This document shows positions 8,351 to 63,300 of a DNA stretch of 64,000 nucleotides, piece after piece. Source of the DNA: a virus. Under the pieces are notes generated by a model. That model was not told the origin of the DNA and searched no databases. It worked only from the letters and a program-made list of their open reading frames with translations. Location of the stretch: the IMG/VR virus record IMGVR_UViG_3300020185_000016; one strand, 5' to 3'. The stretch's first letter is position 1; the number at the start of each line of letters is the position of its first letter. Made by a program: the position numbers and the translations under genes.

Positions 8351-8358
8351 TATTTATA
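8351..8358 (-). promoter_or_regulatory. T4-type late promoter
   Basis: TATAAATA 32 nt upstream of 8319 start. Confidence 0.7.
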
Positions 8359-25192: not shown

Positions 25193-25248
25193 CCCTTATT
25201 AATAATTGGTAATACTTCAGAATTATTTATAAGGAAGATAATAATAAT

Positions 25249-28802: not shown

Positions 28803-28810
28803 TATTTATA
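28803..28810 (-). promoter_or_regulatory. T4-type late promoter
   Basis: TATAAATA. Confidence 0.6.
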
Positions 28811-28978: not shown

Positions 28979-30676
28979 TTAGGCCTCACATGCTGCGCAT
29001 TCAGTTGATATTACTCTTTTGCGGGTCAAAGATTGTGCTGCAGACATAGAAAAACTATAATATAAACTCTTAATACCCAATTCATGAGCATACAAATATA
29101 GCTGATTAATTTCCTTTACAGTCATATCTGGATCAAGCATTAGATTCAAGCTTTGACTTTGATCAATATATTCTTGACGGATTGCCGCTTGATCAATAAT
29201 AGTATTTGGACTAATTTCAGAAAATGTTTTAAATACTGCTTTTTCATCATCAGTTAAAATATCGAGATGCTGAACAGATCCATCTGCATTACGGATTGCT
29301 TCCCATACTTCGGGTTTATCTTCATCTTTTTCTTGCAATAATTTTTCAAGATATGGATTCTTAATTGTTACTTTCATTTTAGCCAAATCTTTAACATAGC
29401 AATTACTAAATTCTGGCTCTATAGATTGAGATACTTGACCCAAAATAAAACTTGATGATTTAGTTGGAGCAACAGCCATTGTAGTAGTATTGCGCATACC
29501 ATAGCCTTCAAGAAGTGGTGGTTCGCCTAAAACAATAGCCAATTCTTTTGAAGCTTCATAACTTCTTGTTCGCAATGTTTTTGCAATTTCAAGATTTAAT
29601 TTGGCCGCGGCTGTGCCCTCAAAAGCAATCATATTAGACTGTAAATATGAATGCCAGCCAAGAATACCAGCGCCTAGCGCCCGGTGATTTTTTGCAAATT
29701 CCCTCGCACGAAGCAAATATGTCTGGCCTTCGGTCTTGCGAATAAATTCCTCACAGACAGTATCAAGGAACATAGTTAATGTTTCAATAGCATCTGTTTC
29801 TTTAATCTCATCCCAATGTAAAAGATTAAGTGATGATAATACACAAGTAAACGTTTCTTCATGTGAAGATGGCAAGGCAATTTCAGCACACATATTAGAA
29901 GCATATACGCGCAGATCTTTATCTTTATAAACTTGGGGCCGGCCATCATTTACATTATCGCTAAATAAAATATATGGGAAGCCAATTTCAGCTCGACGCT
30001 GCAAAACTTTTGCCCATAATCTGCGCTTTTCTGCATCACCGGCTTTCATTTCGCGAATAAACGCATCACTTACCGTAATACCTGTTGTAAGCCCTTGGAT
30101 AGGATTACCTTCTGTACCAATGTCCAGAAACTCGTCAGCATCTGGGTGTTCAATGTCTTGGTATGCCGCAAAGAAACCACGGCGAACTGAACCTTGCGAT
30201 ACAACTGATGCCAAAGTATCATACATCTGCATAAAGTGTACCGAACCCGAGGATTCTCCCGAATCACGAATTGGAGCACCGCGATGACGAACGGCGCCAA
30301 AGTAACCCGACGTACCACCGCCGTTTTTCATTAGCATACCGTTTTCAGCATGACCAAATAAAATAGCTTCCATATTATCGTCAATATAAGAACCAAAACA
30401 AGAAACTGGTAAGCCCCGGTTTTTGCCATAATTTGCCCATACTGGCGATGCTAATGAATAATAGCCGCGGCTCATATAATCATAAAACTTATCAGCAAAA
30501 CCATCAAATTTTGATTGGTCTGATTTAGTCTTTGCCATATCTTTTAAATACCATTCTGCTTTATCCGCAATATTGCGAATACGGCTTTCTGGCTTTTCTT
30601 TTCCTTCTAAATAGCCACGTGACAAAAATGTTCGGGAATCTTCGTTTAACCAATAAAACTTTTTATATTTTTTCAT
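28979..30676 (-). CDS. nrdA: Class I ribonucleotide reductase alpha subunit, no ATP-cone
   Basis: SCF, GGTS, ASNMCAEI, TCVLSS, APT.SSS, KSLYY, C-terminal CAAC. Confidence 0.96.
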   Translation of the reverse strand: MKKYKKFYWLNEDSRTFLSRGYLEGKEKPESRIRNIADKAEWYLKDMAKTKSDQSKFDGFADKFYDYMSRGYYSLASPVWANYGKNRGLPVSCFGSYIDDNMEAILFGHAENGMLMKNGGGTSGYFGAVRHRGAPIRDSGESSGSVHFMQMYDTLASVVSQGSVRRGFFAAYQDIEHPDADEFLDIGTEGNPIQGLTTGITVSDAFIREMKAGDAEKRRLWAKVLQRRAEIGFPYILFSDNVNDGRPQVYKDKDLRVYASNMCAEIALPSSHEETFTCVLSSLNLLHWDEIKETDAIETLTMFLDTVCEEFIRKTEGQTYLLRAREFAKNHRALGAGILGWHSYLQSNMIAFEGTAAAKLNLEIAKTLRTRSYEASKELAIVLGEPPLLEGYGMRNTTTMAVAPTKSSSFILGQVSQSIEPEFSNCYVKDLAKMKVTIKNPYLEKLLQEKDEDKPEVWEAIRNADGSVQHLDILTDDEKAVFKTFSEISPNTIIDQAAIRQEYIDQSQSLNLMLDPDMTVKEINQLYLYAHELGIKSLYYSFSMSAAQSLTRKRVISTECAACEA

Positions 30677-30687
30677 TCTATAATTTC

Positions 30688-31971
30688 CTAAAATAAATCA
30701 TCGCAAGTAAACGCTTTTGTTTTCTTTGAATACGCGGTACTGCGCTTAACAAAAAAGTCTACATTTTTTGTACTCAAAATTTCTTCCATAAACCAGTCAG
30801 TAGTTTTGACTGCATCCATATCTACATCATATAATGGCTTCATATCAATTGCTTGGAGCGATTGATTAAACCGATATTTTAAAAATTCTTTTACTGTTTC
30901 TTTTGGCAAGAAATCTAAATCATATTCGCCATAAATCCAATCAACAATTGCAGATTCTGCTTTATATGCATCACGGCAAAGGCGATTAACTTCGCTAATA
31001 CTATCTTTATCAAACCAATCTGGATTTTCTGCCCGAATAATATTTACCAGTTCAAACCCAAATCGAGCATGAATATCTTCTTCTTTTGAAGTAGCTTCTA
31101 CTGCATTTGAAATACCCTTAAGCACATTTTTATGCTTGTTAAATGACATCATAATTAAAAACTGGCTAAACAAAGATACATTTTCAACAAACATTGAAAA
31201 TAGAATAATTTTATGAAAATAATCTTTATTATCAACAGGAGAACCAATTGATTGTTCGAGATACGCAATACGTTTTTTCATAGCAGGCACTTCAACAAGC
31301 TTTTCAAATTCTTCGTTAAGCCCCATTATTTCAATAAGATTTGAATAAGCATCGGCATGCCGCACTTCAGATTCGCCAAAAGTCATACCTACTGCAGACA
31401 CTTCTGGTTTTGGGAATCGATCACCGATTTTAGACCAAAATGTTTTAACCGCAACTTCAATTTGAGAAATGGCTAACATAGCCTTCTTAACAATTTCAAC
31501 CTCTTCGGGTTTCATATTAACTTTCATATCTTGAATATCAGATGAATAATTAAATTCAGTATGAACCCAATATGAATGACGAATAGCATCTGTGTATTCA
31601 TTAAGCTGAGGATATTCATACGGCTTTAGGTTTGTTCTTTTGCGAAAAATATCTGGTTGGTTATTAAAACGAAAACGAATATATTCACGGGCTAAATCAT
31701 GTAAGCCCATATCCATAATAACATTCTCTACAGTTGTATGAATATTATCAACCCCCACTTGAACATCAGCAGCATCATCCTCATTCAATAAATTTGTTAC
31801 ATCATTGGCTACTTCACCTGGGAGCAACCTGCTCCGCATTCCAACAGTTTTCATAGCTTTAGAAACCGCAAGACTAATTTTATTTTCGTCGTAGCTTTCA
31901 GTAGTGCCATCACGTTTAGTAACGTAATTAACTTTTCTTAAAAATTCTTGGGGAGTTGTTTGCAGCATCAT
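30688..31971 (-). CDS. nrdB: RNR beta subunit with N-terminal ATP-cone (class Id-like)
   Basis: VTKRDG cone; QIEVAVK, EVRHADAY, EEDIH. Confidence 0.93.
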   Translation of the reverse strand: MMLQTTPQEFLRKVNYVTKRDGTTESYDENKISLAVSKAMKTVGMRSRLLPGEVANDVTNLLNEDDAADVQVGVDNIHTTVENVIMDMGLHDLAREYIRFRFNNQPDIFRKRTNLKPYEYPQLNEYTDAIRHSYWVHTEFNYSSDIQDMKVNMKPEEVEIVKKAMLAISQIEVAVKTFWSKIGDRFPKPEVSAVGMTFGESEVRHADAYSNLIEIMGLNEEFEKLVEVPAMKKRIAYLEQSIGSPVDNKDYFHKIILFSMFVENVSLFSQFLIMMSFNKHKNVLKGISNAVEATSKEEDIHARFGFELVNIIRAENPDWFDKDSISEVNRLCRDAYKAESAIVDWIYGEYDLDFLPKETVKEFLKYRFNQSLQAIDMKPLYDVDMDAVKTTDWFMEEILSTKNVDFFVKRSTAYSKKTKAFTCDDLF

Positions 31972-35592: not shown

Positions 35593-35668
35593 ATATTTAA
35601 TTTCCCATGCGATAAATTATTATTGTTATTTATAATATAATATATTCAATACATATATTTTGTAATAA

Positions 35669-35908
35669 TTATTGACTACCAAATTCATGGCCGGCCACTC
35701 GCTTCATTTGTTTATTAAATTCTTCTTGGTCCGGTTTTTTCTTGTATAGCTTAATAGAGATATTATCTTTATCTTTACCTTTAATACGCCATTTCATACC
35801 ATCCGCTTTATGTTCAGCATCAGTTGTTTTTACAACACGACGTTTATAGCCATCTTCCCAGGTTTCGGATCTTCCACCTTCGGCAATAAAAAGCTTAAAT
35901 GGTTTCAT
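35669..35908 (-). CDS. Putative internal head protein (CTS)
   Basis: MKPFKLFIAE/G. Confidence 0.7.
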   Translation of the reverse strand: MKPFKLFIAEGGRSETWEDGYKRRVVKTTDAEHKADGMKWRIKGKDKDNISIKLYKKKPDQEEFNKQMKRVAGHEFGSQ

Positions 35909-36075
35909 TGGGATAACTCCGTCGTAGTTTCGGTTAATAAAGAAGTCTTAATTTGTAATTCTATTGGATTTGCTTCATTTAATTTAGTAGCGGATTCATT
36001 TGTAGGCTTACACTCACCACAGCAATTATCGGTACCACAATCCGGATGCTCATTCAATTGAGGATTAATTAACAT
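35905..36075 (-). CDS. Small Cys-rich protein
   Basis: HPDCGTDNCCGEC. Confidence 0.55.
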   Translation of the reverse strand: MLINPQLNEHPDCGTDNCCGECKPTNESATKLNEANPIELQIKTSLLTETTTELSQ

Positions 36076-36352
36076 TTTTTTTACCCCTATTATCATATTC
36101 GCCCATTTTCATAACTTGTTCTTTAGCATACCATTGTGGGCTATATGTTTCATGCCAATCCCACTCGCGTGTTTTTGAATTCCACTCCAATACTTTCCAC
36201 TCACCTTTATGACGAATATTTTCATCATATTGTTTTTCAATTTTAAATCTTCTACCGGTAGGAAAAGTAATTTCCTTTTCGCCGTTGGGTCCAGCCTTTT
36301 TCCATTTAGGCAATTTAACAGCTTCTGTTAAATGAGTTTTGAAACTTTTCAT
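36065..36352 (-). CDS. Putative internal head protein (CTS)
   Basis: MKSFKTHLTE/A. Confidence 0.7.
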   Translation of the reverse strand: MKSFKTHLTEAVKLPKWKKAGPNGEKEITFPTGRRFKIEKQYDENIRHKGEWKVLEWNSKTREWDWHETYSPQWYAKEQVMKMGEYDNRGKKNVN

Positions 36353-36642
36353 TTCATTAATTCTTTTATAATAGCTAAGGCTTTCTTACCATCAGGATGG
36401 TTTGGATTTATACTTACTTCATCACCGTTCATAAAATCAGATATATTTGCTGATTTACCTAATGCTGTAATTGCTTTATGTAATGGATCTCTTTTATCAT
36501 ATTTAGTTTCAAAATTAGGTTTACCCCGCAATTCAACCCAACTTTTTTCTTTAGTGTCTCTCATTTTTAAAGTATCCTGGCCTATGCCACGAATCAATTT
36601 AACCATAACACCTTCAGAAATATATGTTTTAAATTTTAGCAT
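36349..36642 (-). CDS. Putative internal head protein (CTS)
   Basis: Start trimmed to MLKFKTYISE/G. Confidence 0.7.
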   Translation of the reverse strand: MLKFKTYISEGVMVKLIRGIGQDTLKMRDTKEKSWVELRGKPNFETKYDKRDPLHKAITALGKSANISDFMNGDEVSINPNHPDGKKALAIIKELMK

Positions 36643-36644
36643 TG

Positions 36645-36950
36645 CTAAATACCCGGTTCTATTATTTTTAAAATTAAAGTGCCGTCGCTGGGACAACCCG
36701 TAGGAGGTTTGCCCTTTATTAACCTATGATATTCCATTTTTTTTATTTGAAATGTTGTACCTTCTTCCATCATATGAGGAAGAGTATTTTCCATTTGGAA
36801 TAACCAACCAGCACTATTATGTACAACAAGAACTAATCTATCTTTTTTATCCCTATGCCAATGTAAATCGCCGCCTTCACAATCATATGCAAAAGTTCTA
36901 AACCATACATTTTCTTCAACAGTTGGGATATCGAAATAAGGAGCTACCAA
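36645..36950 (-). CDS. Cupin-fold protein
   Basis: LHWHRD...EYHRLIKG; probable TTG start overlapping the upstream stop. Confidence 0.7.
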   Translation of the reverse strand: MVAPYFDIPTVEENVWFRTFAYDCEGGDLHWHRDKKDRLVLVVHNSAGWLFQMENTLPHMMEEGTTFQIKKMEYHRLIKGKPPTGCPSDGTLILKIIEPGI

Positions 36951-37480
36951 AAGAAATTTCCACCCCCGCTTAATCCCAGCTGATCGGCATAATATGGTAA
37001 TCGACATGCCCAATAACCAGCAGTCATTTTATCGGTTTTTGTATCACATTGATGTCTAGCAGCAAAAGACTTACGAGCTGCCGGATCATCAATTTTTGCT
37101 TTCAATCCTGTGGTATCACCCCATGAAATTTTTTTAATCTTATCAGTTTTAGGATCTTTAACATAAACATAATATTTTTTTGGGCCGCCACGCTTTGGTT
37201 TATTTAATGGCATATCCTGCTCTTTTTCTTCGAGCATTGGTGAATCTAAGGGCACATGCTGATGATTATAAAAAGCAAATTCCCCAATATCGGTTTGTTC
37301 AATCATAAATAAATCGCGACCAGATAACTCAATATTACCTTCAGCATATTGCTTTCGGGCATCTCTGAAAACTTTATAATAAGATTCTGAGCCAACTCTA
37401 TATAACTCACCAAGAGAAATATTATTTTCTACAACATACGTTAAATTAGTGTCATTTACAAAGTTTTTAAATTTAATCAT
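36944..37480 (-). CDS. Putative internal head protein, two modules
   Basis: MIKFKNF..YVVE; MLEE/KEQDMPLNKPKRGG..RKSF.ARH.C. Confidence 0.75.
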   Translation of the reverse strand: MIKFKNFVNDTNLTYVVENNISLGELYRVGSESYYKVFRDARKQYAEGNIELSGRDLFMIEQTDIGEFAFYNHQHVPLDSPMLEEKEQDMPLNKPKRGGPKKYYVYVKDPKTDKIKKISWGDTTGLKAKIDDPAARKSFAARHQCDTKTDKMTAGYWACRLPYYADQLGLSGGGNFFW

Positions 37481-37481
37481 T

Positions 37482-37964
37482 TTATATTAATCCCTTTGAA
37501 TCCATAACTAAATATCCTATACCGCCAAATACTCCGATACAAGCAAACATTAATATTAATATAGCTAAAGTATTTAATAAATTTTTACGCATTTCGGCCT
37601 GGCGATATACAGTTTCTTGCCTTTGTTTTGCTATCTTACGACGCATGCGAATTAATTCATCCCAGGCATTTGCTCCATATCTAAACATTAGCATTGTTCT
37701 TAATTCTTTTTCTTGTTCAATTATTTTCTTTTCTTGAATAAGCAATGCTAAAGCTTCTTCTTCAATAGATCCGCTAGCAAATAGCCGTTTAAAAATTGGC
37801 GGATTTTTTGCTTGTTCTTTTGCAAATCTAAAATCATTTACTGCGCTATACCACTTACCTAATTGCTGAGCAGTATCTTCAAATTCCCTACCAGCCGCAA
37901 CCATTCGAGTTACTACATTATATGCAGAGGTAGCCATAGTTATTGCTGATATTGGATCTATCAT
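37482..37964 (-). CDS. Coiled-coil protein with C-terminal TM
   Basis: MIDPISA start; TM at C-terminus. Confidence 0.7.
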   Translation of the reverse strand: MIDPISAITMATSAYNVVTRMVAAGREFEDTAQQLGKWYSAVNDFRFAKEQAKNPPIFKRLFASGSIEEEALALLIQEKKIIEQEKELRTMLMFRYGANAWDELIRMRRKIAKQRQETVYRQAEMRKNLLNTLAILILMFACIGVFGGIGYLVMDSKGLI

Positions 37965-38215
37965 TATTCGGTTTCTTTTTTATCTAAAACTGCATACATG
38001 TCTTTAGCTTTTTCATGAAACCCGCTTAATTTATTTTGCATCCATTCCGGAAATTTTTTATTATTTTGAATATGTTCAGCTACTTCTTTGCCTACATATT
38101 GAATAAATTCTGCTTGTTGCATAGCCATACCGGCTTCATCTGGGGAAGCCGGTTTATCATCTTCTGGCGCTTCTGTAATAATGCGGAATTCTCTTAATTG
38201 GGTAAAGGATTTCAT
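37964..38215 (-). CDS. Putative internal head protein (CTS)
   Basis: MKSFTQLRE..IITE/A; PEWMQNKL. Confidence 0.7.
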   Translation of the reverse strand: MKSFTQLREFRIITEAPEDDKPASPDEAGMAMQQAEFIQYVGKEVAEHIQNNKKFPEWMQNKLSGFHEKAKDMYAVLDKKETE

Positions 38216-38216
38216 T

Positions 38217-41075
38217 TTATTTTACCTTACTCATTGCAAAATCCATCATTTTCATAAACCTGGTTTCGTCTTTGTTAATTGCGTCAGCAAACTTTTTCTT
38301 GTTTGCATCGTTCAACGAGTCATGCACCTTTACCATTGCAGATGCAGTGAACATATCAACTTTTGTCTTTGAACCAGAAGCAAATTTAACAGCTCCGGCC
38401 GACTTTGTGTTTACGATTTTACGAAGATCATCGATAACGCCTTCTGATACAACTTCTACATAATCTTTATTACTAGGTAATTTGCCTTTATTAAGACCAT
38501 TTTTAGCTTTATGTTTATCAAATGTGGGTTTAATACCACGCTTTTTAGCATTCTTTTCAGCTTTATCGATATCAACCATATGCTTAGCATAACCCTTCTT
38601 AAACATTTTAGGGTCAGATTTTTTATGTTCATCGTCATTTTTTGATTGCTTTTTATTACGCCAATCAATAAATTTTTTGCCGGACATTGCTGCGGCCCGA
38701 TCACTGGAGGTATATTTACCGCCAAATAGACCTTTATTATCTTTGTATTTAGCACTGGTACCAGCAGCCTCTTCTAGCGGATTAGTAAAGCTATCGGCCT
38801 TTAAGCGGCCAATAATACGTCCACCCCCATCTGTAACAATAAAATCGCCGTTATCAGCAATACGAGAAGTTGTTCCGGCTTTTGCTCTTTTACCACCAAG
38901 AGCCTTTGTCATTAGGGCCTTTACTGCTCTTTCTTTTACGCCTTCATCAAGTTCAATTTCTTCATTACGTATATTTTTCTGAAATGCTTTGTATTCTTTG
39001 CGGCGGTCTGCGTCTTTATCTAATAAAGAAAGAATTTTTTCACGTGGCTCTGTGTCTAAGTCATCGACAAACTTCTTCAGTTGTGCTGTTTGACCTTTCT
39101 TCATCATCATAGCAGCTTTTATAAAGTCCATCTTATCAATGCCGCCATGTTTACGGGCATAATCTTCAAGTTCTTTTGCAACACGTGACATTGTAGCTTC
39201 ATCAAGATTCGATTCTCTTATTGAGGCTTTGTACAATTCTAAACCTTTAGAATATGCTGGGTTTTTCATCATTCGCTTTGACTCAGCATCATCTGGATTT
39301 TGATGAGCCATGCGAACTGTTGGTTCGTCTAATTTATTGGCTTTCATATGCTTTTTATATGCATCAAACTTTTTAGAATCTACTGCTGGACCAAATCTGT
39401 TTCTCATCGGCGTGGTTGTTTCATTAACAGATTCAGCAAGCTTCCAACCCTTTGCAAGATATTCTTTTTGTTTAGTCTTATCAATAACAATAGTTTTGCC
39501 GGCTTTATCTACAACCATGACTTCGGTTTTAGGATTTTTTAACTGCCGAGCCTCCTCAACAGATTCGGTAAATTCAACTGGAACAAGGATGGATCCTTTA
39601 GACCCACCATTAACCATCATCATTTCATCACCTTTACGAGCAATTTTAAAATCTTTGTGAATTTTTTTAAAGTTAGCTTTTGAAATATAAACTTTATTAT
39701 TTTTTACTTCATAATCGCGATCCCGTAAAACGGCTTCGTCAAGCGATTCAAATTGCATAGTATGTTGGCCACTGCCACGAACCTTTTCGGCTGCGGCTTT
39801 AGATGAATATGGGGCACCTTGATTAACAAATTTGCCACCAGAAAACTTTTGAACCTGAAACCCGGATTTTGCTTTAGCGCCGGCTCTGTTATCAGGGTGG
39901 GCATTCGACAAATCTATAATACGGATTTGACCGGTTTTAGCTTCAGAAATAGCCTCATCGCCCTTATCGGTTTCGCTGTTTATATTTTGTTTAAATTTAT
40001 TCCAATTATAATCGCGGATAATTTTTAAGATTGCATCTCTATTACTAGAACGCTTGTCAATATATTTACCAACAATGACATCAATAGACATTTTGGCTTC
40101 AAGATCTTTAATAATCTTTTTAGCTGGTAATTTAGCTTCATCTACATATTCAATACCTTCTTTCATATCGATAAGACTTGCACCTAAATCGCCAATAGCA
40201 AAGGTAATTTTACCGTCCTTTTTTCTACGTAAGAAAGATTTAACACCACCAGATTTTGCTTGAAGAGTAATTTTTTCTTGTTCGGAAGGCTTACCTTTTA
40301 AAACGGTTGTTTTTGATAAAACTTTATATTCGACAAAATCTCCACCTTTAGATAACGTTGAATCAAATTTAATTTTTACATTATCATTTTTCTTTAACTT
40401 ATCGAAAATAGCAGAATGTTTGTCGGTCATTTCAGTTAATCCTTTAATTTGTGTAATTTCTGTGGTAGCTTCTGCCATTGCAGGCTTTTCAATCATATAC
40501 ATTTGTACAGATTCCGTTGGAACAATTCCACCACTTTTCCATACTTTTGGGGCAATAAGAACTCGCGGTCCTCTTAATTCTTTTACAATATAATCCATTT
40601 TAGCTTCGGCTGGTCCGTCAGCGTATTTCTTTTTTAAACGAACAGTATCACCTTTTTTAATTTCGGTTTTTGCTTCATAAGCTGGGCCACGCTTTGGTGA
40701 TCCTGGATTTGGCTGTTTTAAATTTTTACGAAGTGCTGCAAGATCATTTTTAAGCTTGCTTATCTTAAAAGATTTCATAACATTTGAATTGCCAGATTTT
40801 GTTATAGCATTTTTTGTTAATTGCATAGACTCTTCGGTATTTTCTTTACGTGACATAGATTTATCCATTTTATCGGCCGCGGAATTGAATAGTTTAGTAT
40901 AAGTTTTTTCATTTTCGGCGGCCGAAGGCATTGCCATCATAACATCATCATTAACAAGATCCCAATTAATTGAACCATCTTTATTATAATTAGCCTTATC
41001 TTTTAAAGACTTTTTTATGTGTTTTTCAATATTAGATTTATTAAGAGAAGCCTCTTGCAAATTACGATTTTCCAT
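38217..41075 (-). CDS. 952-aa Lys-rich modular polyprotein, putative prohead-protease substrate
   Basis: GAGG RBS before MENRNLQE/A; repeated hydrophobic-x-E/(A,G,S,T) linkers. Confidence 0.85.
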   Translation of the reverse strand: MENRNLQEASLNKSNIEKHIKKSLKDKANYNKDGSINWDLVNDDVMMAMPSAAENEKTYTKLFNSAADKMDKSMSRKENTEESMQLTKNAITKSGNSNVMKSFKISKLKNDLAALRKNLKQPNPGSPKRGPAYEAKTEIKKGDTVRLKKKYADGPAEAKMDYIVKELRGPRVLIAPKVWKSGGIVPTESVQMYMIEKPAMAEATTEITQIKGLTEMTDKHSAIFDKLKKNDNVKIKFDSTLSKGGDFVEYKVLSKTTVLKGKPSEQEKITLQAKSGGVKSFLRRKKDGKITFAIGDLGASLIDMKEGIEYVDEAKLPAKKIIKDLEAKMSIDVIVGKYIDKRSSNRDAILKIIRDYNWNKFKQNINSETDKGDEAISEAKTGQIRIIDLSNAHPDNRAGAKAKSGFQVQKFSGGKFVNQGAPYSSKAAAEKVRGSGQHTMQFESLDEAVLRDRDYEVKNNKVYISKANFKKIHKDFKIARKGDEMMMVNGGSKGSILVPVEFTESVEEARQLKNPKTEVMVVDKAGKTIVIDKTKQKEYLAKGWKLAESVNETTTPMRNRFGPAVDSKKFDAYKKHMKANKLDEPTVRMAHQNPDDAESKRMMKNPAYSKGLELYKASIRESNLDEATMSRVAKELEDYARKHGGIDKMDFIKAAMMMKKGQTAQLKKFVDDLDTEPREKILSLLDKDADRRKEYKAFQKNIRNEEIELDEGVKERAVKALMTKALGGKRAKAGTTSRIADNGDFIVTDGGGRIIGRLKADSFTNPLEEAAGTSAKYKDNKGLFGGKYTSSDRAAAMSGKKFIDWRNKKQSKNDDEHKKSDPKMFKKGYAKHMVDIDKAEKNAKKRGIKPTFDKHKAKNGLNKGKLPSNKDYVEVVSEGVIDDLRKIVNTKSAGAVKFASGSKTKVDMFTASAMVKVHDSLNDANKKKFADAINKDETRFMKMMDFAMSKVK

Positions 41076-41553
41076 TGTAACCTCTACCGATTGATTTACG
41101 GAATTGTTTAACACCAACTCTATCAGACATGTCTTGGCCCTTTTCACGCTTACGAATAGTTTCTTTTTCTTTTGAAATTTCAGGATTGCCGCGAAGAAGT
41201 TTAGCTGTTGCAGTATTACGAGCCTTATCACTTTTCATTTTAGCTTTTTTTCTATAGCTATCCAATGCGCCTGGACGATCTAGAACTTCATCAATAGTCT
41301 CTTCATTCTTGCCTCTTACTTTATCCGCTAAATCTTTATCGGCTTTGCCCCATGTGCCCGGAGATTTTGTAGTAAACGAATTAACCCTAGCAAATCCCCA
41401 TTGTTCAGGAGTGGTTCCAGGTCTATGACCGGTTTTCCAAGCCGCTACACCGCGGTTATATACACTACGTAAAACACTTAATGGCATTCCAGATTTTTCC
41501 GCTTTATTTTTAAGTGCTTTAGTATTTTCATTAAATTGTTTAAAAGTTTTCAT
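41062..41553 (-). CDS. Putative internal head protein, two modules
   Basis: MKTFKQFNE/N; internal EETIDE/V. Confidence 0.8.
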   Translation of the reverse strand: MKTFKQFNENTKALKNKAEKSGMPLSVLRSVYNRGVAAWKTGHRPGTTPEQWGFARVNSFTTKSPGTWGKADKDLADKVRGKNEETIDEVLDRPGALDSYRKKAKMKSDKARNTATAKLLRGNPEISKEKETIRKREKGQDMSDRVGVKQFRKSIGRGYNGKS

Positions 41554-42752
41554 GGCTTTGTCGATCTATTTGTTGAACGTGTTTGTAAAGTTCGCGCGCG
41601 ATCTCGCATTGCATCAAATTTGATTTTATCTGCTCTTTTTTCTCTATTAATTCTATCATTTACTTTATCAATATAATCAATTTCTTCGTCGGTATCGCCA
41701 AACATTTGTGCAAATCGTTTAGTGTGCTTACTTGGCTTAGTTTTTGCAGTGGCATCGCCTGGTGCTTTTTTATAAGCATCGGGATTATTATCAGCCTTTT
41801 TAGCATTCTTTTTAAAATGTTGGTCTCTAGCAATTTTTGTAGACTTGTTCTTTATTCCAGCAAAATACTTTTTAGGCTGCGCTCCATCACGGTCCGCAAT
41901 ATCGGGATCTTGGGTAGTAGTTGTTTTTTCTTCAATTTTTTCAATTCTATCAAGCCATTGTCTAGATTTTCCGGATGAAGTTTCAACAATTACATAATTT
42001 GGGCCAAGTGTTGCAATAATACCAACCTCGCTTGTTTCAGTAATAATAATTTCTTCGCCTATAGAATACAAATCACCCTTTACATATTGCTCTCTAATAT
42101 CAGAAATAGATTCTAATTGAATGTGACGTTTAAATTCGGTTTCTTCTTTTAATCCCATGCCTTTACGCACATCATTAAAAAGTTTTTTTGCATCAGAATT
42201 ACTCATTGAAGTAGGAAGACCTTCATAAAATTTTGTGAAATTATTCTCTGCGGCAAATTTACGCTGCTTAGTTCCAGACGCACCGTCTGGCCCATCGCTA
42301 TCAGCATCTCGCATACCGGCCGATATTACCTGAACCCCACCATTAAAATTATAAAATCCGTGAGTAGAATCAACTCCATTATATTTATTTAATCTAATTT
42401 TATATTCATCCACTCTATCACTACCAGCTACCATAATAACTTTACGGAAACCCTGATCATAAAGATAAGCTAATGCAAAAAAAGGATTAATAATTTTTTT
42501 ATTAATTAAAATATTGCGGGCATGTTTTGGAAACATTTTTCGCACATGCTTTACCTTGTCCGCATATTTCAAAGGATTATCTTTTTTATCCTGAGATTGA
42601 GATAAAAAGATTTTATACGGCAAACGGCCAGCGGTTTGCGCTAGTTTATTTAATAATTTACCATGACCAACAGTAGGCGGATTTAATCTACCAAAAGTAA
42701 AATATACTATTTGGTCTTCTTCAATAATATATTGTTTAAAAGAATTAACCAT
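41550..42752 (-). CDS. HIGH-family nucleotidyltransferase with CTS and C-terminal modules
   Basis: MVNSFKQYIIEE; FGRLNPPTVGH, GSDR, SGTK.R. Confidence 0.85.
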   Translation of the reverse strand: MVNSFKQYIIEEDQIVYFTFGRLNPPTVGHGKLLNKLAQTAGRLPYKIFLSQSQDKKDNPLKYADKVKHVRKMFPKHARNILINKKIINPFFALAYLYDQGFRKVIMVAGSDRVDEYKIRLNKYNGVDSTHGFYNFNGGVQVISAGMRDADSDGPDGASGTKQRKFAAENNFTKFYEGLPTSMSNSDAKKLFNDVRKGMGLKEETEFKRHIQLESISDIREQYVKGDLYSIGEEIIITETSEVGIIATLGPNYVIVETSSGKSRQWLDRIEKIEEKTTTTQDPDIADRDGAQPKKYFAGIKNKSTKIARDQHFKKNAKKADNNPDAYKKAPGDATAKTKPSKHTKRFAQMFGDTDEEIDYIDKVNDRINREKRADKIKFDAMRDRARTLQTRSTNRSTKP

Positions 42753-43191
42753 TTTTAGATTGTGCCTTATGCTGTTTTCTATCTTTTTCAGCTTGACGCA
42801 TTTTTGGAAGCAATTTTACAGCAATGCGATCTATTCTTGAGCCCATTTTCTCAAGCCGTTTTTCTAATTCCATTTTACGAGCAACTGACATATCACTTTT
42901 CGGAATATCTTTTGTAAGTTTTTTAAGAATAATATTACGGGCTGCTTTACGTGCACGTTTTTTTAACACATCTTTATTGGCAGTACGACGTGCGGCGCGG
43001 TTGCGCCCCATTTTTAATTTAGCTTTATTACGTTTCATACTACGGCCGCGAGCTAATCGCTGTTGAATATTGAGAGCCTCATCTGGGCCACCACTACCGC
43101 CGGTTCTTTTTGTTCTATGTGCTTGATGTTGAACTTCGTCTGGTTCTCCATCACGCATATCTACAACTCTTAGATCTTTAAATCTAATCAT
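42745..43191 (-). CDS. Arg/Lys-rich late protein
   Basis: MIRFKDL; PDE/ALNIQQRLARGR. Confidence 0.8.
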   Translation of the reverse strand: MIRFKDLRVVDMRDGEPDEVQHQAHRTKRTGGSGGPDEALNIQQRLARGRSMKRNKAKLKMGRNRAARRTANKDVLKKRARKAARNIILKKLTKDIPKSDMSVARKMELEKRLEKMGSRIDRIAVKLLPKMRQAEKDRKQHKAQSKNG

Positions 43192-44420
43192 TAACTTCTC
43201 CCTGGCTTATCCCATCCTTTAATAATATCTGGCGAAAAGTTGTTGTATGAAAATTCTAATCTATCAACAATCTTTACAGCGTCACTACCCAGTCTATCAA
43301 TTGCTACATAACCTTCTTGACCCGTTGTTTTAAAACCATTTTTAGTTTTTACAAAAGTCTTTACTTTATTTATCCTATCAAGTATATTTATAAGTTTTAA
43401 TTTCGCTAAGACAATAACTTTCTGCAATTCGAACATAGTTATCAAATTATTTTTATTATTAGCCGAAAAAAATGATAAAATATCATTCAGTTTATCTTGT
43501 TTGCGCCCCTTACCTTTTTCAGTTTTAAGCTTATCCATTTCTTTTTGGAATTTTGCTTCAATAAATTTAATAAGTGCCGTTACTCTTTTGGCTGGATCCG
43601 GGGGCATTTGGCCTGCCCGTACATAAGAATTTGAATGTTGCTCTATTAATTGTGTTAAATCAGTATTAGCTTCTAAGGTGCGTAAAACGCCCCCCGAAAT
43701 TTTATTAAATAATTTTCCAGCTTGAGTTAAATAGTCATTTACTATATCGGAATCAGACTTATTCATAGTAAGATTTGTCATATCACGAAGCATAGCATCT
43801 TGCGACCAAACATTTTTTGATTTTTTAAGACGAGAAACATTAACACCATATGAAGCTTTCATAGTTTCAAATGTATTACCTTTATATGTAGTATGCCAAA
43901 CAATACCAATTTTAGATGCTAAAATTTCTTTTGATGATACTGTATTAGCTGGTACAGCATAAACAATAGTATTTGGATGGAAGGTGATATATTTTTCACC
44001 AGCAATAGTTTCATTACTAAGATCGCCTGGGCCGTATAAAAAATCGCCCTGAATAACTTCAGTAATTCCCAATTCGGGTAAATATTGTAAGGCTTGCTTA
44101 AGCTTTATAGCTAAATCGCCTGAAGTATCTGCATCTACCTCACCTGGAGTTTTATATACTTTTGGATTTTTATTAAAAATACCCTTTTTAGCAACAAAAA
44201 ATTTGCCATCAGCTGGATCAATGCCAGCAAATACTGCTGGTGCTCCATCCCATTTAACAGATATTTTCCCGTCATGTTCGCCCTTTAACATATTACGCAA
44301 TTCGCGCAAAGCCATAATAGCTTGACGAGTACCATTAACACCACCATAAATCACCTTATCTTCAAGGTGTGTCATGTGAGTATTTTTGTTTTCAGCAATG
44401 AAAGATTTAAAGTTTTCCAT
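43191..44420 (-). CDS. CTS-bearing protein with ligase-like nucleotidyltransferase motifs
   Basis: MENFKSFIAE/N; VKWDG, IQGDF, QEGYV, VKIV. Confidence 0.7.
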   Translation of the reverse strand: MENFKSFIAENKNTHMTHLEDKVIYGGVNGTRQAIMALRELRNMLKGEHDGKISVKWDGAPAVFAGIDPADGKFFVAKKGIFNKNPKVYKTPGEVDADTSGDLAIKLKQALQYLPELGITEVIQGDFLYGPGDLSNETIAGEKYITFHPNTIVYAVPANTVSSKEILASKIGIVWHTTYKGNTFETMKASYGVNVSRLKKSKNVWSQDAMLRDMTNLTMNKSDSDIVNDYLTQAGKLFNKISGGVLRTLEANTDLTQLIEQHSNSYVRAGQMPPDPAKRVTALIKFIEAKFQKEMDKLKTEKGKGRKQDKLNDILSFFSANNKNNLITMFELQKVIVLAKLKLINILDRINKVKTFVKTKNGFKTTGQEGYVAIDRLGSDAVKIVDRLEFSYNNFSPDIIKGWDKPGRS

Positions 44421-44452: not shown

Positions 44453-45241
44453 TTAATTGTTTATTAGTATAAGATCAAAAGAAGCATTTACTTCTGTTTG
44501 TTGAGCAGCAACAGCATCTACACGAATATCACTTTTTTCTGCAAATACTAATGGTATTGGGTATTCAATAAATGTGTTTTGCCCGCCGGCTGCGAAATAT
44601 GTTCCTTTATTTCGGAAAATTCCGCCATCTTGAAAAGTTCTTTGTCTTAGTGTGTATTTCATAGCCGAATTAGTACTAGCCTTTGATGAACCAAATCTTA
44701 ATGAAAGCATATAAGCAGTTTTACCAGCGGGTACTGTATAAATAGCCATTAAGGTTTGAGCTTCATTTGCAGTAATCTGCGCGGCGGTTGTGGCTCCAAT
44801 ACTAATAATAACGTTAGCATCATTATTAATATCAACCATATATGCTCTATAAACTCTAAGAAAAGTTTTTACCCCAGTTGAACCAATAGGAATAGTTTCA
44901 CTTTGATCATTATAATTTTCATCTAATCCTTGAATAAAAACACTCGCACCAGAATTTTGTGTTGAAACAACAGAAATTACAGATGGAACAGTCGGAAATA
45001 CATAAGTACTGCTTCCAGTATTACCGTCCCAAATACTGCCTGCTGTTATATCGCCCGGAGTAGCACCAAATTTATTAATATGATTATAATTAGCAATTAA
45101 ACCGGCTGCAAGTGGAATATTACCAACATTTCCATTGCCGTTAAGTATATTACCATTTTTATCAGCCATCATAATCACTTCATGAATATCATTATTTCCA
45201 GCATGAAGTGGATTTTGTCTACTAACGCTATACTGTGCCAT
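44453..45241 (-). CDS. Putative virion structural protein
   Basis: Beta-rich, low charge, late region. Confidence 0.65.
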   Translation of the reverse strand: MAQYSVSRQNPLHAGNNDIHEVIMMADKNGNILNGNGNVGNIPLAAGLIANYNHINKFGATPGDITAGSIWDGNTGSSTYVFPTVPSVISVVSTQNSGASVFIQGLDENYNDQSETIPIGSTGVKTFLRVYRAYMVDINNDANVIISIGATTAAQITANEAQTLMAIYTVPAGKTAYMLSLRFGSSKASTNSAMKYTLRQRTFQDGGIFRNKGTYFAAGGQNTFIEYPIPLVFAEKSDIRVDAVAAQQTEVNASFDLILINN

Positions 45242-45255
45242 TTATAATTCCCTCT

Positions 45256-46008
45256 TTACATTTTTACCCTAGGTTTAATTGTGCCAGAAGTTATTCTTTC
45301 TAAGATAATATCTTTCTTTTGAACCAGTTTAATTTCAATAAGGTCCCCAAGAGAAAATCCGGCGCCAGTTTTATTAGCTAAAAAAATAATTTTATGATTT
45401 TTAAAATAATTTTTATAACTTAGATCTACAAATTCATCTTCAAGGTCTTTAAGCTGCGCCGGAAATTGTTTTCTTATTATATCAAGTTGTCCGCTATTAA
45501 CTTCGGATCCACTTCCTAATCCAGCATCTTTTTTTAAATCTTGAATCCCGCGAATAATTTCAGCAATAGAAAATGTTCCCCCAATTTTAAAATTATTAAC
45601 ATATTTACCATTAGCCGAATAATCAACAGCTTTAACTTCAAAGCTTCCTGCTGCATCCACAATATCAACTCCGGCCGAAGAGCCTCCACCCAAATGTCCA
45701 TTATTCAAAATAAAATATAGCATAACTTCACCGGGTCCTACCCCTTTAATATTATACTTATATAATGCTTCGAAGTTACGGATATCTATATTCCGTGCAG
45801 TTTTAATTGCTTTTTTAAGAGCTGACGCAGTAATTCGATCTATATGAACATCATTGCTATTATTAAATTTTGGAAAAAAATGTAAATGAAAAAGATGTTG
45901 AATTTCTTTTTTATAAGTCAAAGATTCAAAATCTTTTGCAATTAAATTAAATGAGGTCCGTACCATAGCTCTATTAAGAAACTCGGAATTTAATTGACTA
46001 GTATCCAT
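45256..46008 (-). CDS. Putative PD-(D/E)xK nuclease-like protein
   Basis: GPGE..; GVDIV....FEVKA; TATAAATA at 46040..46047. Confidence 0.55.
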   Translation of the reverse strand: MDTSQLNSEFLNRAMVRTSFNLIAKDFESLTYKKEIQHLFHLHFFPKFNNSNDVHIDRITASALKKAIKTARNIDIRNFEALYKYNIKGVGPGEVMLYFILNNGHLGGGSSAGVDIVDAAGSFEVKAVDYSANGKYVNNFKIGGTFSIAEIIRGIQDLKKDAGLGSGSEVNSGQLDIIRKQFPAQLKDLEDEFVDLSYKNYFKNHKIIFLANKTGAGFSLGDLIEIKLVQKKDIILERITSGTIKPRVKM

Positions 46009-46061
46009 TATTTTTTTCCACTAATAAACTTATTAGTATTATTTATATAAAAAAATATTAT

Positions 46062-46094
46062 AAAGCCCCCAATACTTAATGTGTTGGGGGCTTT
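46062..46094. terminator. Terminator separating early and late blocks
   Basis: AAAGCCCCCAATAC-TTAAT-GTGTTGGGGGCTTT. Confidence 0.85.
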
Positions 46095-51324: not shown

Positions 51325-51840
51325 ATGAAGCATATATTTTTTATTATAATTTTCTTATTCAGTACAGGCTGTTCCATATTTAATACATTGGGGCAACAGC
51401 CAAAACATACTATAAATCTTACTGAAGCGATTTATTATGTTGGTCTTAATGAAAATATAGATCGTGTTCAATTAAAAAGATTTTTAAATGTTGACCCGGT
51501 TACAACTGAGTGGTGCGCAGCATTTATCAATGCGGTTTTAGCTAGAAATAATATATCAAACCTACACGATTTTAATTCTAAACGACCATTATTAGCACAA
51601 GAATTTTTAAATTACGGAGAAATAATTCTTGAAGAAGAATTGCGGTATGGCGATATTATAATAATAGAGCGCGATGGCGCAAAATGGCAAGGTCATGTTG
51701 GATTTTTTATGGGAATTCGGCATTCTCGAGGGCAAAAATATTATTTACTTTTGGGTGGTAATCAAAATAATAAAGTTAGTATTGCCCCATATTCATCAAA
51801 AAAATTAATTGGAATGCGAAGATATTCTAATTATAAATAA
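51325..51840 (+). CDS. NlpC/P60-CHAP-like lipoprotein (TIGR02594-like)
   Basis: Lipobox STGC; WCAAF, GD, GHVGF, GGNQ; TATAAATA at 51312. Confidence 0.85.
   Translation: MKHIFFIIIFLFSTGCSIFNTLGQQPKHTINLTEAIYYVGLNENIDRVQLKRFLNVDPVTTEWCAAFINAVLARNNISNLHDFNSKRPLLAQEFLNYGEIILEEELRYGDIIIIERDGAKWQGHVGFFMGIRHSRGQKYYLLLGGNQNNKVSIAPYSSKKLIGMRRYSNYK
51832..51839 (+). promoter_or_regulatory. T4-type late promoter
   Basis: TATAAATA 29 nt upstream of 51869. Confidence 0.7.
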
Positions 51841-51868
51841 AACTATATAAGCAATTAATGAGAATCTA

Positions 51869-52636
51869 ATGTATACTTTTAAATCATTTATAAGCGAAAG
51901 CGCTAAATCAGATAAGTATGAAAATGATATGGCTAAACACATTGCCGATATGGGTTTAGACGCATCTCGTCCAGCCGTTGATCCAACATATTCAGATATT
52001 CTTATTAAATATAAAGGCGATCGCATATGGTTAGAAGTTAAAATGAATCACTCTGACCAACTTGGCAATACTCGCGCTAGTTTTGACGGTAAAAAATGGA
52101 TTGCCGCAATTGATAAAAAAGGCCCTAGTAAGGGTAAATTATCTCCTCTTAAAGCATATATTACTAAAACCTTAAATAACGATAAAGATACTCAAGCATG
52201 GTTAAAAGATCTTGAAAAGTTTTCCGGAATAAAGGGTATGAAAGTACCCACATTAATTTCTGGATTGAGTGATCCAAAATCCGTTCCACGTGATGTAATG
52301 ATTGCATATTTAAAAGGTAAAAAACAATATATTTTAAATAAACCTGAAGTAGATTTGGGCGAGTTAATTACTCAGCATTATCTTAAAGGGAAATCCGAGC
52401 CAGCATATTATATGCAAGCCGGCGATGATTTCTATAGAATTGGTTCTGCAAATCCAATGGGCGTTCCTAATGATGTTCCATTACTCTCTGGCACTGGCCC
52501 ATTCAAAATGCGCATTGGTATGCGGTCAAAGTATTATGAGGTGCAGCCCGAGGTTAAAATTACTAAAATGCCGAGCAGTAAGTATTCCTTAAAGCCCGGC
52601 ACTAGTAAATTAAACCCATTTGAAAATATCAAATAA
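51869..52636 (+). CDS. CTS-bearing PD-(D/E)xK nuclease-like protein
   Basis: MYTFKSFISE/S; E..(N-terminal), SDIL......WLEVK. Confidence 0.65.
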   Translation: MYTFKSFISESAKSDKYENDMAKHIADMGLDASRPAVDPTYSDILIKYKGDRIWLEVKMNHSDQLGNTRASFDGKKWIAAIDKKGPSKGKLSPLKAYITKTLNNDKDTQAWLKDLEKFSGIKGMKVPTLISGLSDPKSVPRDVMIAYLKGKKQYILNKPEVDLGELITQHYLKGKSEPAYYMQAGDDFYRIGSANPMGVPNDVPLLSGTGPFKMRIGMRSKYYEVQPEVKITKMPSSKYSLKPGTSKLNPFENIK

Positions 52637-61935: not shown

Positions 61936-63300
61936 TTAAATTTTAAAATCTTTGAACCGATCAGCGGTATGTGTCTTATCAAAAGTTGGTGTGTCGTCAG
62001 TAAGTGTTTGTTCATTTTCATCAATATCAAATAATTTCATTTTTGATCTATCGACACCAATTACAAATCGTTTTTTATATGATGGATCATTATATCTATT
62101 CTTCAATTGTTTAACTGCAATTTGACCCATTGATTCAAGTTCTTCAGTAGAAAGCAAAGCAAACATTAGATCAGCAGTTGCAGGCAAACCAAAAGATTCG
62201 GATGTATCAGTTAAATCAATATCACTACTTCCATAACCGCTACGAGTTGTTTGTGTTGCAGAAACAACTGGAAGATTAAATTCCATTGCTAAGCCGCGAA
62301 GTTCTTCAGCAATTGATTTAATAAGTGTATATGAATTTATATTACCACCAGCTTTCATTCTAGCAGAAGCACAAATATTGAGATAATCAATATAGATAAT
62401 ATCCGGTATGAAAGACTTTTTAAGTTTCAATTCATTAAGTAGTGCTCTGAAGTGTGAAGCGTTTGCTTGACCTGTCGGATATTCCTTAATAATCAATTTA
62501 CCATTAGTGCGGCTAGATACTCGATGTACTCTTTCTGCAAACATTGATCTGGTCAGTGTTGGCAATTGATCCATCGGAAGATCTAACAAATTCGCATCAA
62601 TGCGCTCTGCTACACGCTCTTCTGCCATTTCCATAGTAAGATACAAAACATTTTTTCCGGCAGTAAGGTTTGCGGCGGCGCAGTGGCACATGAAAAGAGA
62701 TTTGCCCACACCAGTACCGGCCAAAATAATATTAAGAGTTTTATTTGGAAGACCGCCATTTGTAATTGCATTGAAATATGATAAATCGAATGGCAATTTT
62801 TCTTCATCCCGATGATAGAATTCATACCGTTCATCAACATTTTCAATATAGTCATGGCCAATATTCGTATCAAATGAAACACCGAGTGCTTTGCTAAGAA
62901 TATCCGGTAAAGCATTTTTAGTTAGTGTGTCATGTTTACCGTCAATAATACTAATAGATTCCATTACCGCAATAAACAATGCTCTATCTTGGCACCACTT
63001 TTCGGTAGTGTCATAAAGCCATTGCCCATCAACAGTTTCTTCACTAAACAATGAAGGCAAAATTTCTACTGCATGGCTATGTTGTTCTGCGTTAAATGAA
63101 GTGCTTTGATCAAGTTCAATTTTAAATGATTCGAGTGTTGGCAATTTATTATATTGCCCAACAAATTTACCTACTTCTTTAAATAATTGCTTATAGGTTC
63201 CTTCAAAATAATCTGGTTGAATAAATGGAAGAACTTTACGCATAAAGTCTTCATTCACAATAATATTTTTAATAATAAGTTGTTCAATATTAATAGTCAT
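61936..63300 (-). CDS. 41: Replicative DNA helicase (T4 gp41 / DnaB family)
   Basis: AGTGVGKS, MEMAE, KEYPT, IDYLNI, ATQTTR, SESFG.PATAD, KNRY. Confidence 0.97.
   Translation of the reverse strand: MTINIEQLIIKNIIVNEDFMRKVLPFIQPDYFEGTYKQLFKEVGKFVGQYNKLPTLESFKIELDQSTSFNAEQHSHAVEILPSLFSEETVDGQWLYDTTEKWCQDRALFIAVMESISIIDGKHDTLTKNALPDILSKALGVSFDTNIGHDYIENVDERYEFYHRDEEKLPFDLSYFNAITNGGLPNKTLNIILAGTGVGKSLFMCHCAAANLTAGKNVLYLTMEMAEERVAERIDANLLDLPMDQLPTLTRSMFAERVHRVSSRTNGKLIIKEYPTGQANASHFRALLNELKLKKSFIPDIIYIDYLNICASARMKAGGNINSYTLIKSIAEELRGLAMEFNLPVVSATQTTRSGYGSSDIDLTDTSESFGLPATADLMFALLSTEELESMGQIAVKQLKNRYNDPSYKKRFVIGVDRSKMKLFDIDENEQTLTDDTPTFDKTHTADRFKDFKI

Follow-up and report, generated by a model that had tools for sequence, protein, structure and literature searches.

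Why should a row of unrelated genes, lying among the replication and nucleotide-metabolism genes of a marine phage, begin with nearly the same ten residues? The question is raised by a stretch of 64,000 nucleotides from the IMG/VR virus record IMGVR_UViG_3300020185_000016 (the window, meaning the whole stretch that was analysed), in which nine minus-strand genes between positions 35669 and 44420, and a tenth on the plus strand, carry a common N-terminal leader. The initial annotation had taken this leader for a T4-type capsid targeting sequence (CTS), the N-terminal peptide of the T4 internal proteins (IPs). We find this reading to be well supported, though indirectly: four positions defined in T4 are kept, the leader profile retrieves T4 ipI–III, the tag is portable, and tagged proteins have been detected in cyanophage virions. 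With a probability of about 0.78, the products of the cluster are head cargo in a marine T4-like myovirus, the leader being the counterpart of the T4 CTS. Since nine neighbouring genes and one gene 8 kb away share the T4 head-loading tag, it is probable that enzymes and small basic proteins are loaded into the phage head as a kit and injected.

A leader confined to one gene cluster

The leader occupies about ten residues at the initiator Met, with the consensus M-x-x-F-(K/S)-x-(F/Y/H)-(I/L)-x-E. All ten N-termini quoted in the initial annotation are present at the gene starts given for them, namely 35908, 36352, 36642, 37480, 38215, 41553, 42752, 43191 and 44420 on the minus strand, and 51869 on the plus strand, an outlier about 8 kb from the cluster. 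Phe stands at position 4 in 10/10 leaders (at position 5 in the 42752 leader, which has one extra residue), and position 7 is F, Y, H or L. The motif (L/I)-x-E is present in seven of the ten (35908, 36352, 36642, 42752, 44420, 51869 and, at residues 13–15, 38215). Within the cluster, 9 of about 13 consecutive genes are tagged.

A search with the regular expression M.{1,3}F[KTRQ].[FYLHI].{1,3}E, applied in six frames to each Met that is followed by 40 codons or more, gave eight matches in the 64 kb, every one at a gene start (seven in 35.6–44.4 kb, plus 51869). A position-specific profile brings in the looser members at 37480 (MIKFKNFVND) and 43191 (MIRFKDLRVVD). On this profile the members score 10–24 bits and the best non-member 5.8 bits, while the 38215 leader (MKSFTQLRE...IITEA), a weaker and longer variant, receives 2.8 bits. 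Within the 64 kb, and whatever the frame, the leader is confined to the cluster genes and 51869.

The same confinement is seen in relatives. The closest isolates to the window are Phage C48C1 (Kyanoviridae), Methylophilales phage Melnitz and Pelagibacter phage HTVC008M, and three large IMG/VR genomes (G002–G004) also carry the cluster. In the complete relative G003 (157 kb), the best 4 of 1553 Met positions all lie in its cluster and the rest score 7 bits or less; column-permuted profiles gave a mean of 0.25 matches, and 0 of 300 reached 4. For the C48C1 genome (156 kb), 6/6 regular-expression matches fall within the cluster. In HTVC008M the leaders are degenerate: the strict expression gives no match in its cluster, and its best profile matches are gp139 (MKSFKDFQNV) and gp143. 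Across 80 related IMG/VR loci (848 kb) there are 243 matches of at least 10 bits, all on the coding strand, and the leader is found on at least nine unrelated families plus a dozen families that do not occur in the window. Among the strong matches in these loci, 240 of 279 come directly after Met, and most others lie no more than 5 residues from the start codon.

Agreement with the T4 capsid targeting sequence

The CTS of T4 IPI, IPII and IPIII is an established element (Mullaney & Black 1996; reviewed in PMC9026906 and PMC3012670), and in IPIII residues 4 and 7 carry targeting whereas residues 8 and 10 carry processing (PMC9026906). The N-terminus MKTYQEFIAE, which the initial annotation had given for ipII and ipIII, agrees with the T4 sequence; ipI begins MKTFKEF and has its cut site further downstream. 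In orthology-anchored N-termini of three of the carriers, a DUF6267 protein (44420), a cytidylyltransferase-like enzyme (42752) and a DUF5824 protein (41553), F4, F/Y/H7, I/L8 and E10 are kept and positions 2, 3, 6 and 9 vary. When a profile was built from the window's nine leaders alone, ipI, ipII and ipIII ranked 3rd–5th of 1580 T4 Met positions.

The likeness extends beyond the consensus. Both phages use an N-terminal peptide of about ten residues with an aromatic residue at 4 and 7, I/L at 8 and Glu at 10 (MKTFKEF and MKTYQEFIAE in T4; MKTFKQF, MKPFKLFIAE and MENFKSFIAE in the window). Both place it on unrelated, mostly basic carriers, the T4 internal proteins being basic too, and both lineages have a gp21-type protease cutting after Glu. 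In both, the genes stand outside the head module (in T4, ipII/ipIII at 65.7–66.4 kb and ipI at 73.9 kb). The differences are that the window has 9–10 tagged genes compared with three in T4, that its carriers include enzymes of about 400 residues and a nuclease-like protein rather than small IPs alone, that the residue after Glu is often N/E/D/Q where T4 has A, and that position 10 is D, or not acidic at all, in some members. For the window leaders, loading and cleavage are predictions from the sequence. The mature parts of the small leader proteins have no family in Pfam-A (E ≤ 0.01) or PHROGs (E ≤ 0.001), and their similarity to the T4 IPs is that of the leader only.

Two other systems are worth comparing. 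T4 Alt is an ADP-ribosyltransferase that is packaged in the head and injected, with gp21 processing at ITE-6 and LTE-619 (PMC5694885). It provides a precedent for a head-carried enzyme of a T4-type phage that is trimmed after Glu by the prohead protease and delivered with the DNA; however, its propeptide is shorter, differs in sequence and lacks F-x-x-F, and the window enzymes are of the nucleotidyltransferase type. In the giant phages phiKZ and SPN3US, the propeptides of ejection proteins are cut at S/A-x-E by a gp21-related protease (PMC5694885). There too, the N-terminal propeptides of many head-internal proteins are cleaved off after Glu, and paralogues share identical N-termini, but the A/S-x-E motif, the leader sequences and the lineage differ, and inner-body and virion RNA polymerase cargo is not seen in the window.

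The best T4 match to the marine profile is gp61.1 (NC_000866 18966-19130), a 54-aa hypothetical protein that starts MKTFKEFIKED and sits between genes 61 and 41, in the interval syntenic with the window cluster; possibly it is a head protein whose CTS has gone unrecognised. Second in T4 is an internal Met of UvsW (NC_000866 114210, the start of the former uvsW.1 open reading frame, ORF), with the sequence MLLEFKQFLYEA, so that a leader-like peptide opens a small C-terminal domain in a helicase for which packaging is not known.

A detachable tag at the peptide level

The leader belongs to the polypeptide and not to the domain that follows: it is portable, optional and outside the predicted folds. 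In the window protein, the match to the Pfam DUF6267 model sets in at residue 13, and the DUF6267 proteins of P-HM2, Syn9 and S-SM1 are without the leader. In a set of 77 diverse DUF6267 representatives whose domain is N-terminal, the leader is strong in 27, weak in 7 and missing from 43; many of these 43 begin directly at a conserved KNxH motif. For DUF5824, the leader comes directly after Met in 33/37 separate ORFs and in 0/7 fused forms, although these cases are not phylogenetically independent. In AlphaFold (AF2) models, the predicted local distance difference test (pLDDT) score is below 50 for residues 1–11 of the DUF6267 protein and 93 for the rest, and again below 50 for residues 1–10 of the cytidylyltransferase.

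Of the ten carriers, 9 are basic, with isoelectric points (pI) of 8.7–11.4; the median of the controls is 6.0. The choice among synonymous codons within the leader is about as variable as in the genome at large, and this speaks against an element acting at the level of RNA.

Tagged proteins and the prohead protease in relatives

Two cyanophage proteomes bear on whether such proteins reach the head. In purified virions of S-SM1, 41 proteins were detected (Sullivan et al. 2010, PMC3037559, Table S8), among them the cytidylyltransferase T4-GC190, with 25 peptide counts, and GC1453, GC1454, GC1455, GC425 and GC426 (PMC3037559). Together these are the six virion-detected S-SM1 genes of the syntenic gp41–gp61 interval. 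The GC190 protein of S-SM1 starts MKKFSAFLNE-A and, at 12.3 bits, is the top profile match in the S-SM1 genome, while the leaderless S-SM1 DUF6267 protein (GC71) is missing from Table S8 (PMC3037559).

In S-CREM2, six "non-structural" proteins were detected in virions by mass spectrometry (MS), and the authors considered that the enzymes may be carried into the host (PMC10665884). Three of the six carry the leader: the cytidylyltransferase gp154 (MKNFSSFLTE-A, 15.9 bits), the S-adenosylmethionine (SAM) hydrolase gp6 (MKDFDSFLEE, 12.2 bits) and the kinase gp14 ((V)KRFDAFLTE-E, 11.9 bits). When all 1389 Met positions of this genome are ranked, the two best both belong to MS-detected proteins, as does the fourth best (107301). 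In the region of gp6 and gp14 (OR473000 3837-12846), the MS-detected Cas9-like gp12 has a leader-like LRFASFMAE-A at residues 17–26, and the small gp13 upstream starts MKDLHSFLTE. Neither the S-SM1 nor the S-CREM2 paper mentions a targeting signal (PMC3037559, PMC10665884), and a full-text search of the accessible library turned up a T4 review but no cyanophage paper in which capsid targeting is mentioned or these detections are linked to a CTS. Internal proteins, leaders and the proteomics of the cluster genes are not treated in the Melnitz paper, and no paper was found that combines HTVC008M with the cytidyltransferase.

The cyanophage virion cytidylyltransferase is the orthologue of the window protein at 41550-42752, with 34–37% identity over about 250–270 residues (Syn9, S-SM1 and S-CREM2). 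It shares with it the leader and the gp41–primase interval, and the cyanophage proteins are MS-detected in purified virions. The two groups differ in the extent of tagging, since the window lineage also tags DUF6267, DUF5824 and more small proteins, whereas the cyanophage DUF6267 is untagged and not virion-detected.

The protease that the T4 analogy calls for is found in this lineage. Peptidase_S77, the T4 gp21 family, occurs in C48C1, HTVC008M, G002-G004, S-SM1 and S-CREM2, and a gp21-type protease together with a gp22-type scaffold is present in every sufficiently complete relative tested; in the nearest IMG/VR record (G001, a 23-kb fragment) no prohead protease was found. In HTVC008M, gp21 starts MKLITE...LIAE-A and a small neighbouring protein MEENKTIVSE-A, therefore the (L/I)-x-E rule appears to be retained in the lineage.

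Points against the reading and alternative explanations

Several observations weigh against head cargo. The support comes from relatives and not from the window's own phage, whose head module lies outside the window, and we infer its gp21 from those relatives. In C48C1 and HTVC008M the F-K leader is not used by the scaffold, the protease or the capsid proteins. The (L/I)-x-E cut site is absent in the leaders at 41553 (FNE-N), 37480 (VND-T) and 43191 (RVVD), and the tagged enzymes have N/E/D/Q after Glu, not the A/G/S expected (A in the T4 IPs); because of these three leaders, and of the enzymes with N/E/D after Glu, cleavage of every tagged member is uncertain and may not occur in all. In T4 the two best profile matches, gp61.1 and the internal UvsW Met, outrank ipI–III and are not known head proteins, hence the motif is not perfectly specific. 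The S-CREM2 authors warned that abundant proteins might co-purify with virions (PMC10665884). Syn9 gp184 has the leader (13.3 bits), yet both the Syn9 and the S-PM2 proteome list T4-GC190 as "-"; this counts weakly, because these surveys, which are older and shallower, failed to detect gp4, gp5, gp14, gp21 and further genuine structural proteins as well. Finally, the T4-type late-promoter consensus TATAAATA is not above chance in the window as a whole, with 14 copies against 17.35 expected.

One could instead suppose that the leader is a propeptide or recognition tag for a role outside the head, such as chaperone or partner binding, degradation or regulation, or zymogen activation, the proteins acting in the infected cell. 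This would suit the ordinary-looking enzymes of the cargo, many of whose cyanophage orthologues are untagged and presumably act after expression, as well as the position of the cluster among replication and nucleotide-metabolism genes, outside the head module, and the rank of gp61.1 and UvsW in T4. However, T4's own IP genes are likewise outside the head module, the carriers are basic, the leader agrees with the T4 CTS at its functional positions and retrieves ipI–III, and leader-bearing proteins are found in purified S-SM1 and S-CREM2 virions, so that we regard a role outside the head as unlikely.

It is less probable still that the conserved feature resides in the mRNA, the A/T-rich first ten codons (ATG AAA nnn TTT AAA nnn TTT ATT nnn GAA) acting as an enhancer of translation initiation, or as an operator by which a RegA-like translational repressor would control the genes of the unit together. 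TTTAAA does occur in 8/10 window leaders, A/T-ending codons are slightly over-used there (TTT 0.88 vs 0.70; GAA 0.86 vs 0.76), and relatives encode a RegA homologue. But the codons are not fixed at synonymous sites (AAA/AAG 70/30, TAT/TAC 61/39), amino-acid replacements are conservative (F/Y/H at 7, I/L at 8, K/S at 5), and the peptide is kept across 194 distinct nucleotide leaders in the 80 loci and in the T4 IPs; virion detection and the loss of the leader in fusions would also be left unexplained. Recent duplication of a single gene, or chance in an A/T-rich genome, is already contradicted by the data and can be given almost no weight. Several members are indeed small, basic and adjacent (35669-36642), as tandem duplicates would be, but neither family nor fold is shared among the carriers (DUF6267, cytidylyltransferase, DUF5824, phrog_7595 and others), and their similarity ends after about ten residues. 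The other five frames and the rest of the 64 kb give no matches, and permuted profiles give 0.25 matches against 4 in G003.

Proposed route of the cargo and its significance

For the reading as head cargo, we infer loading, cleavage and injection. The unit would be transcribed late from a T4-type late promoter, and during prohead assembly the leader would dock the proteins on the scaffolding core through the aromatic residues 4 and 7, as in T4 IPIII. A gp21-family protease would then cut after the Glu of (I/L)-x-E, freeing mature, mostly basic proteins in the head, and would probably also chop a 952-aa ORF of the cluster at its [LIV]xE[AG] sites. At infection the cargo would exit the head with the DNA. 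It would comprise the RNA-ligase-like DUF6267 protein, the NMNAT/cytidylyltransferase-like enzyme, the DUF5824 and phrog_7595 proteins, the nuclease-like 51869 product and the small basic proteins. That the injected proteome is larger than that of T4, and much larger as the initial annotation had it, is a plausible extrapolation from 9–10 tagged genes as compared with the three IPs and Alt of T4.

The mechanism itself, the T4 CTS/internal-protein system, is known, and what would be new is its extension to very abundant ocean phages. Of note are the size of the tagged set, the presence of the tag on enzymes and the account it gives of the cyanophage virion detections, since the leader offers an explanation for the puzzling "non-structural" enzymes that had been feared to be contaminants. 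If the reading is true, a ten-residue tag predicts the capsid-borne proteins of marine T4-like phages from sequence alone; its presence or absence among orthologues makes a simple test set, and the leader is a candidate natural delivery tag for engineering T4-like phages of hosts other than E. coli. With an RNA-ligase-like and an NMNAT-like enzyme among the cargo, the injected functions may be RNA-repair, NAD-related or anti-defence ones, at work before phage genes are expressed.

A more speculative extension, for which we would not give even odds, is that the portable CTS acts as an evolutionary switch, ten codons deciding between a protein made after infection and one that is pre-packed and injected. 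The phage might in this way deliver an RNA-repair, nucleotide-modifying or anti-defence kit together with peptides of a 952-aa polyprotein. The enzymes under such a switch would be DUF6267, the NMNAT-like nucleotidyltransferase and PD-(D/E)xK-like nucleases, and in cyanophages the SAM hydrolase and the kinase.

Genes of the cluster

All genes of the unit lie on the minus strand. The first (45256-46008) encodes a basic protein of 250 aa that has neither a leader nor a family match, and the second (44453-45241) a leaderless phrog_8198 protein of 262 aa. The DUF6267 protein follows (43191-44420, leader MENFKSFIAE; Pfam 2.8e-100), an RNA-ligase-like nucleotidyltransferase with a KxDG motif, K56-x-D58-G59, that is invariant in 76 sequences; in ATP-dependent ligases and capping enzymes KxDG is motif I and contains the catalytic Lys. 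Its model gives Z scores of 7.0–7.8 over 172–200 residues, which are middling values, against Naegleria RNA ligase, T4 Rnl2, Trl1 and T4 Rnl1, and Foldseek against the PDB reaches only E ~0.1. These comparisons are consistent with a ligase-like enzyme resembling the RNA-ligase adenylyltransferase domain. PDB sequence searches with DUF6267 and with the cytidylyltransferase gave no match.

Next come a very basic protein of 148 aa (42745-43191, pI 11.4), in which the leader variant MIRFKDLRVVD corresponds to MAVGFKDFLTVDY / MLKFKHFFTEDY at the starts of its orthologues, and the cytidylyltransferase-like nucleotidyltransferase (41550-42752, leader MVNSFKQYIIEE; phrog_3041, 2.1e-72). In the latter, the HxGH nucleotidyltransferase part is followed by a small beta domain and then by a basic tail. 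Its leader-like EFKRHIQLES, located where two domains meet in a region of low confidence (window 42110-42140, residues ~205–214), has F207, H210 and L213 nearly or fully invariant in 25 orthologues; it may serve for internal cleavage or for a second docking contact. The DUF5824 protein (41062-41553, leader MKTFKQFNEN), assigned by its Pfam domain, is in HTVC008M and Melnitz the C-terminal part of a fused cytidylyltransferase. Indeed, cytidylyltransferase, DUF5824 and phrog_7595, which are three genes in the window, are joined in HTVC008M gp130 (596 aa; L004 7221-9011) and Melnitz gp18 (650 aa; L014 10459-12411), and the Melnitz fusion retains an internal leader-like IVSFKEHLD.

The largest ORF of the unit (38217-41075) encodes a basic protein of 952 aa with a net charge of +59, which starts MENRNLQEA and has no leader. 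It contains 11 [LIV]xE[AGS] sites as compared with 2.2 in shuffles (P<0.0005), while five folded cargo proteins have none, making it a candidate polyprotein substrate of the head protease. The initial annotation had ascribed further internal Glu-linked modules to the genes at 41062, 41550 and 36944. This holds in so far as the cytidylyltransferase has its internal leader-like motif at a domain boundary and the modules are fused or split differently in relatives; it does not hold for Glu-linked sites in the folded enzymes, which lack [LIV]xE[AGS], such sites being concentrated in the 952-aa ORF.

Downstream are an acidic protein of 83 aa (37964-38215), whose long leader MKSFTQLREFRIITE-A resembles that of T4 ipI, a leaderless phrog_32327 protein of 160 aa with a C-terminal membrane helix (37482-37964), and a protein of 178 aa (36944-37480) with the leader MIKFKNFVND, Asp standing at position 10, and a C-terminal phrog_7595 domain. 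A small, leaderless WHRD-motif protein (36645-36940, or to 37013, as its start codon is uncertain) has homologues in Melnitz gp19 and Flavobacterium phage immuto gp098; in its 36645-37013 extent the gene overlaps the 3′ end of the upstream gene. Beyond it lie basic proteins of 97 aa (36349-36642, leader MLKFKTYISE-G), 95 aa (36065-36352, leader MKSFKTHLTE-A) and 79 aa (35669-35908, leader MKPFKLFIAE-G), and a Cys-rich acidic protein of 63 aa (35905-36096) that has no F-K leader.

The outlying member on the plus strand (51832-52636, including its promoter-like motif) encodes a basic protein of 255 aa with the leader MYTFKSFISE-S; it has no family match, and in relatives there are similar tagged proteins showing a D...E-x-K pattern. 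Pfam and PHROGs gave no family for the small leader proteins, 51869 or 45256-46008, and for ten further leader-bearing families from relatives nothing beyond one DUF6321 match. Tagged families of the relatives that are absent from the window are encoded, for example, at L061:2319-3722, L084:837-1610, L089:2115-2861 and L068:2051-2902. They include a 467-aa family encoded directly upstream of DUF6267, and several proteins of about 250 aa with D...E-x-K patterns reminiscent of restriction-type nucleases, none of them with a Pfam match.

Possible signals for late transcription

A 14-bp G+C-rich hairpin with a T-run (46062-46094, minus strand; stem AAAGCCCCCAATAC...GTGTTGGGGGCTTT) forms a terminator-like boundary of the upstream transcription unit. 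It is followed by the T4-type late-promoter consensus at 46040-46047 (minus strand), which precedes the ATG at 46008 by 31 nt; no other intergenic copy lies upstream of the cluster. The outlying gene 51869 has its own copy 29 nt upstream, at 51832-51839. Altogether, copies 29–34 nt before start codons are found at 8351-8358, 25224-25231, 28803-28810, 35627-35634, 46040-46047 (minus strand) and 51832-51839 (plus strand), and at this near-fixed distance they look like late promoters scattered through the replication arm. As a statistical signal the motif was rejected on the count given above, its placement relative to start codons alone being suggestive. Because of the hairpin terminator followed by a promoter motif near the first ATG, and of the copies 29–34 nt before starts, late transcription of the cluster, as supposed in the initial annotation, is plausible. 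A sigma-70-like scan of the window showed no enrichment, and a cyanophage metatranscriptome (PMC7238727) was set aside as a source for timing since it concerns a different nucleotidyltransferase.

Genomic setting

The window has a GC content of about 34% and almost all of its genes are on the minus strand. Searches by tblastn against HTVC008M and C48C1 placed the gp41 helicase (61936-63300), ribonucleotide reductase (28979-31971), RNase H and PhoH in the window, which is thus that arm of a marine T4-like myovirus genome in which replication and nucleotide metabolism are encoded; no head module is among the genes of the 64 kb. The tagged cluster is located in a conserved interval from gp41 to the primase and ribonucleotide reductase genes, which is syntenic with HTVC008M gp126-143, C48C1 CDS0086-0101 and Melnitz genes 15-29, and also with P-HM2 161-172, Syn9 gp182-191 and S-SM1 188-198.

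In marine metagenomes, at least 8000 database clusters match the DUF6267 protein, with about 70% identity or more among the matches listed. As such relatives fill all 8000 candidates scored, the phage lineage is indicated to be very abundant in the ocean. An identical DUF6267 protein (43191-44420) is recorded on 128 contigs, the longest of 203 kb; therefore the genome of the window's phage may be well above the 141–157 kb of its nearest isolates.

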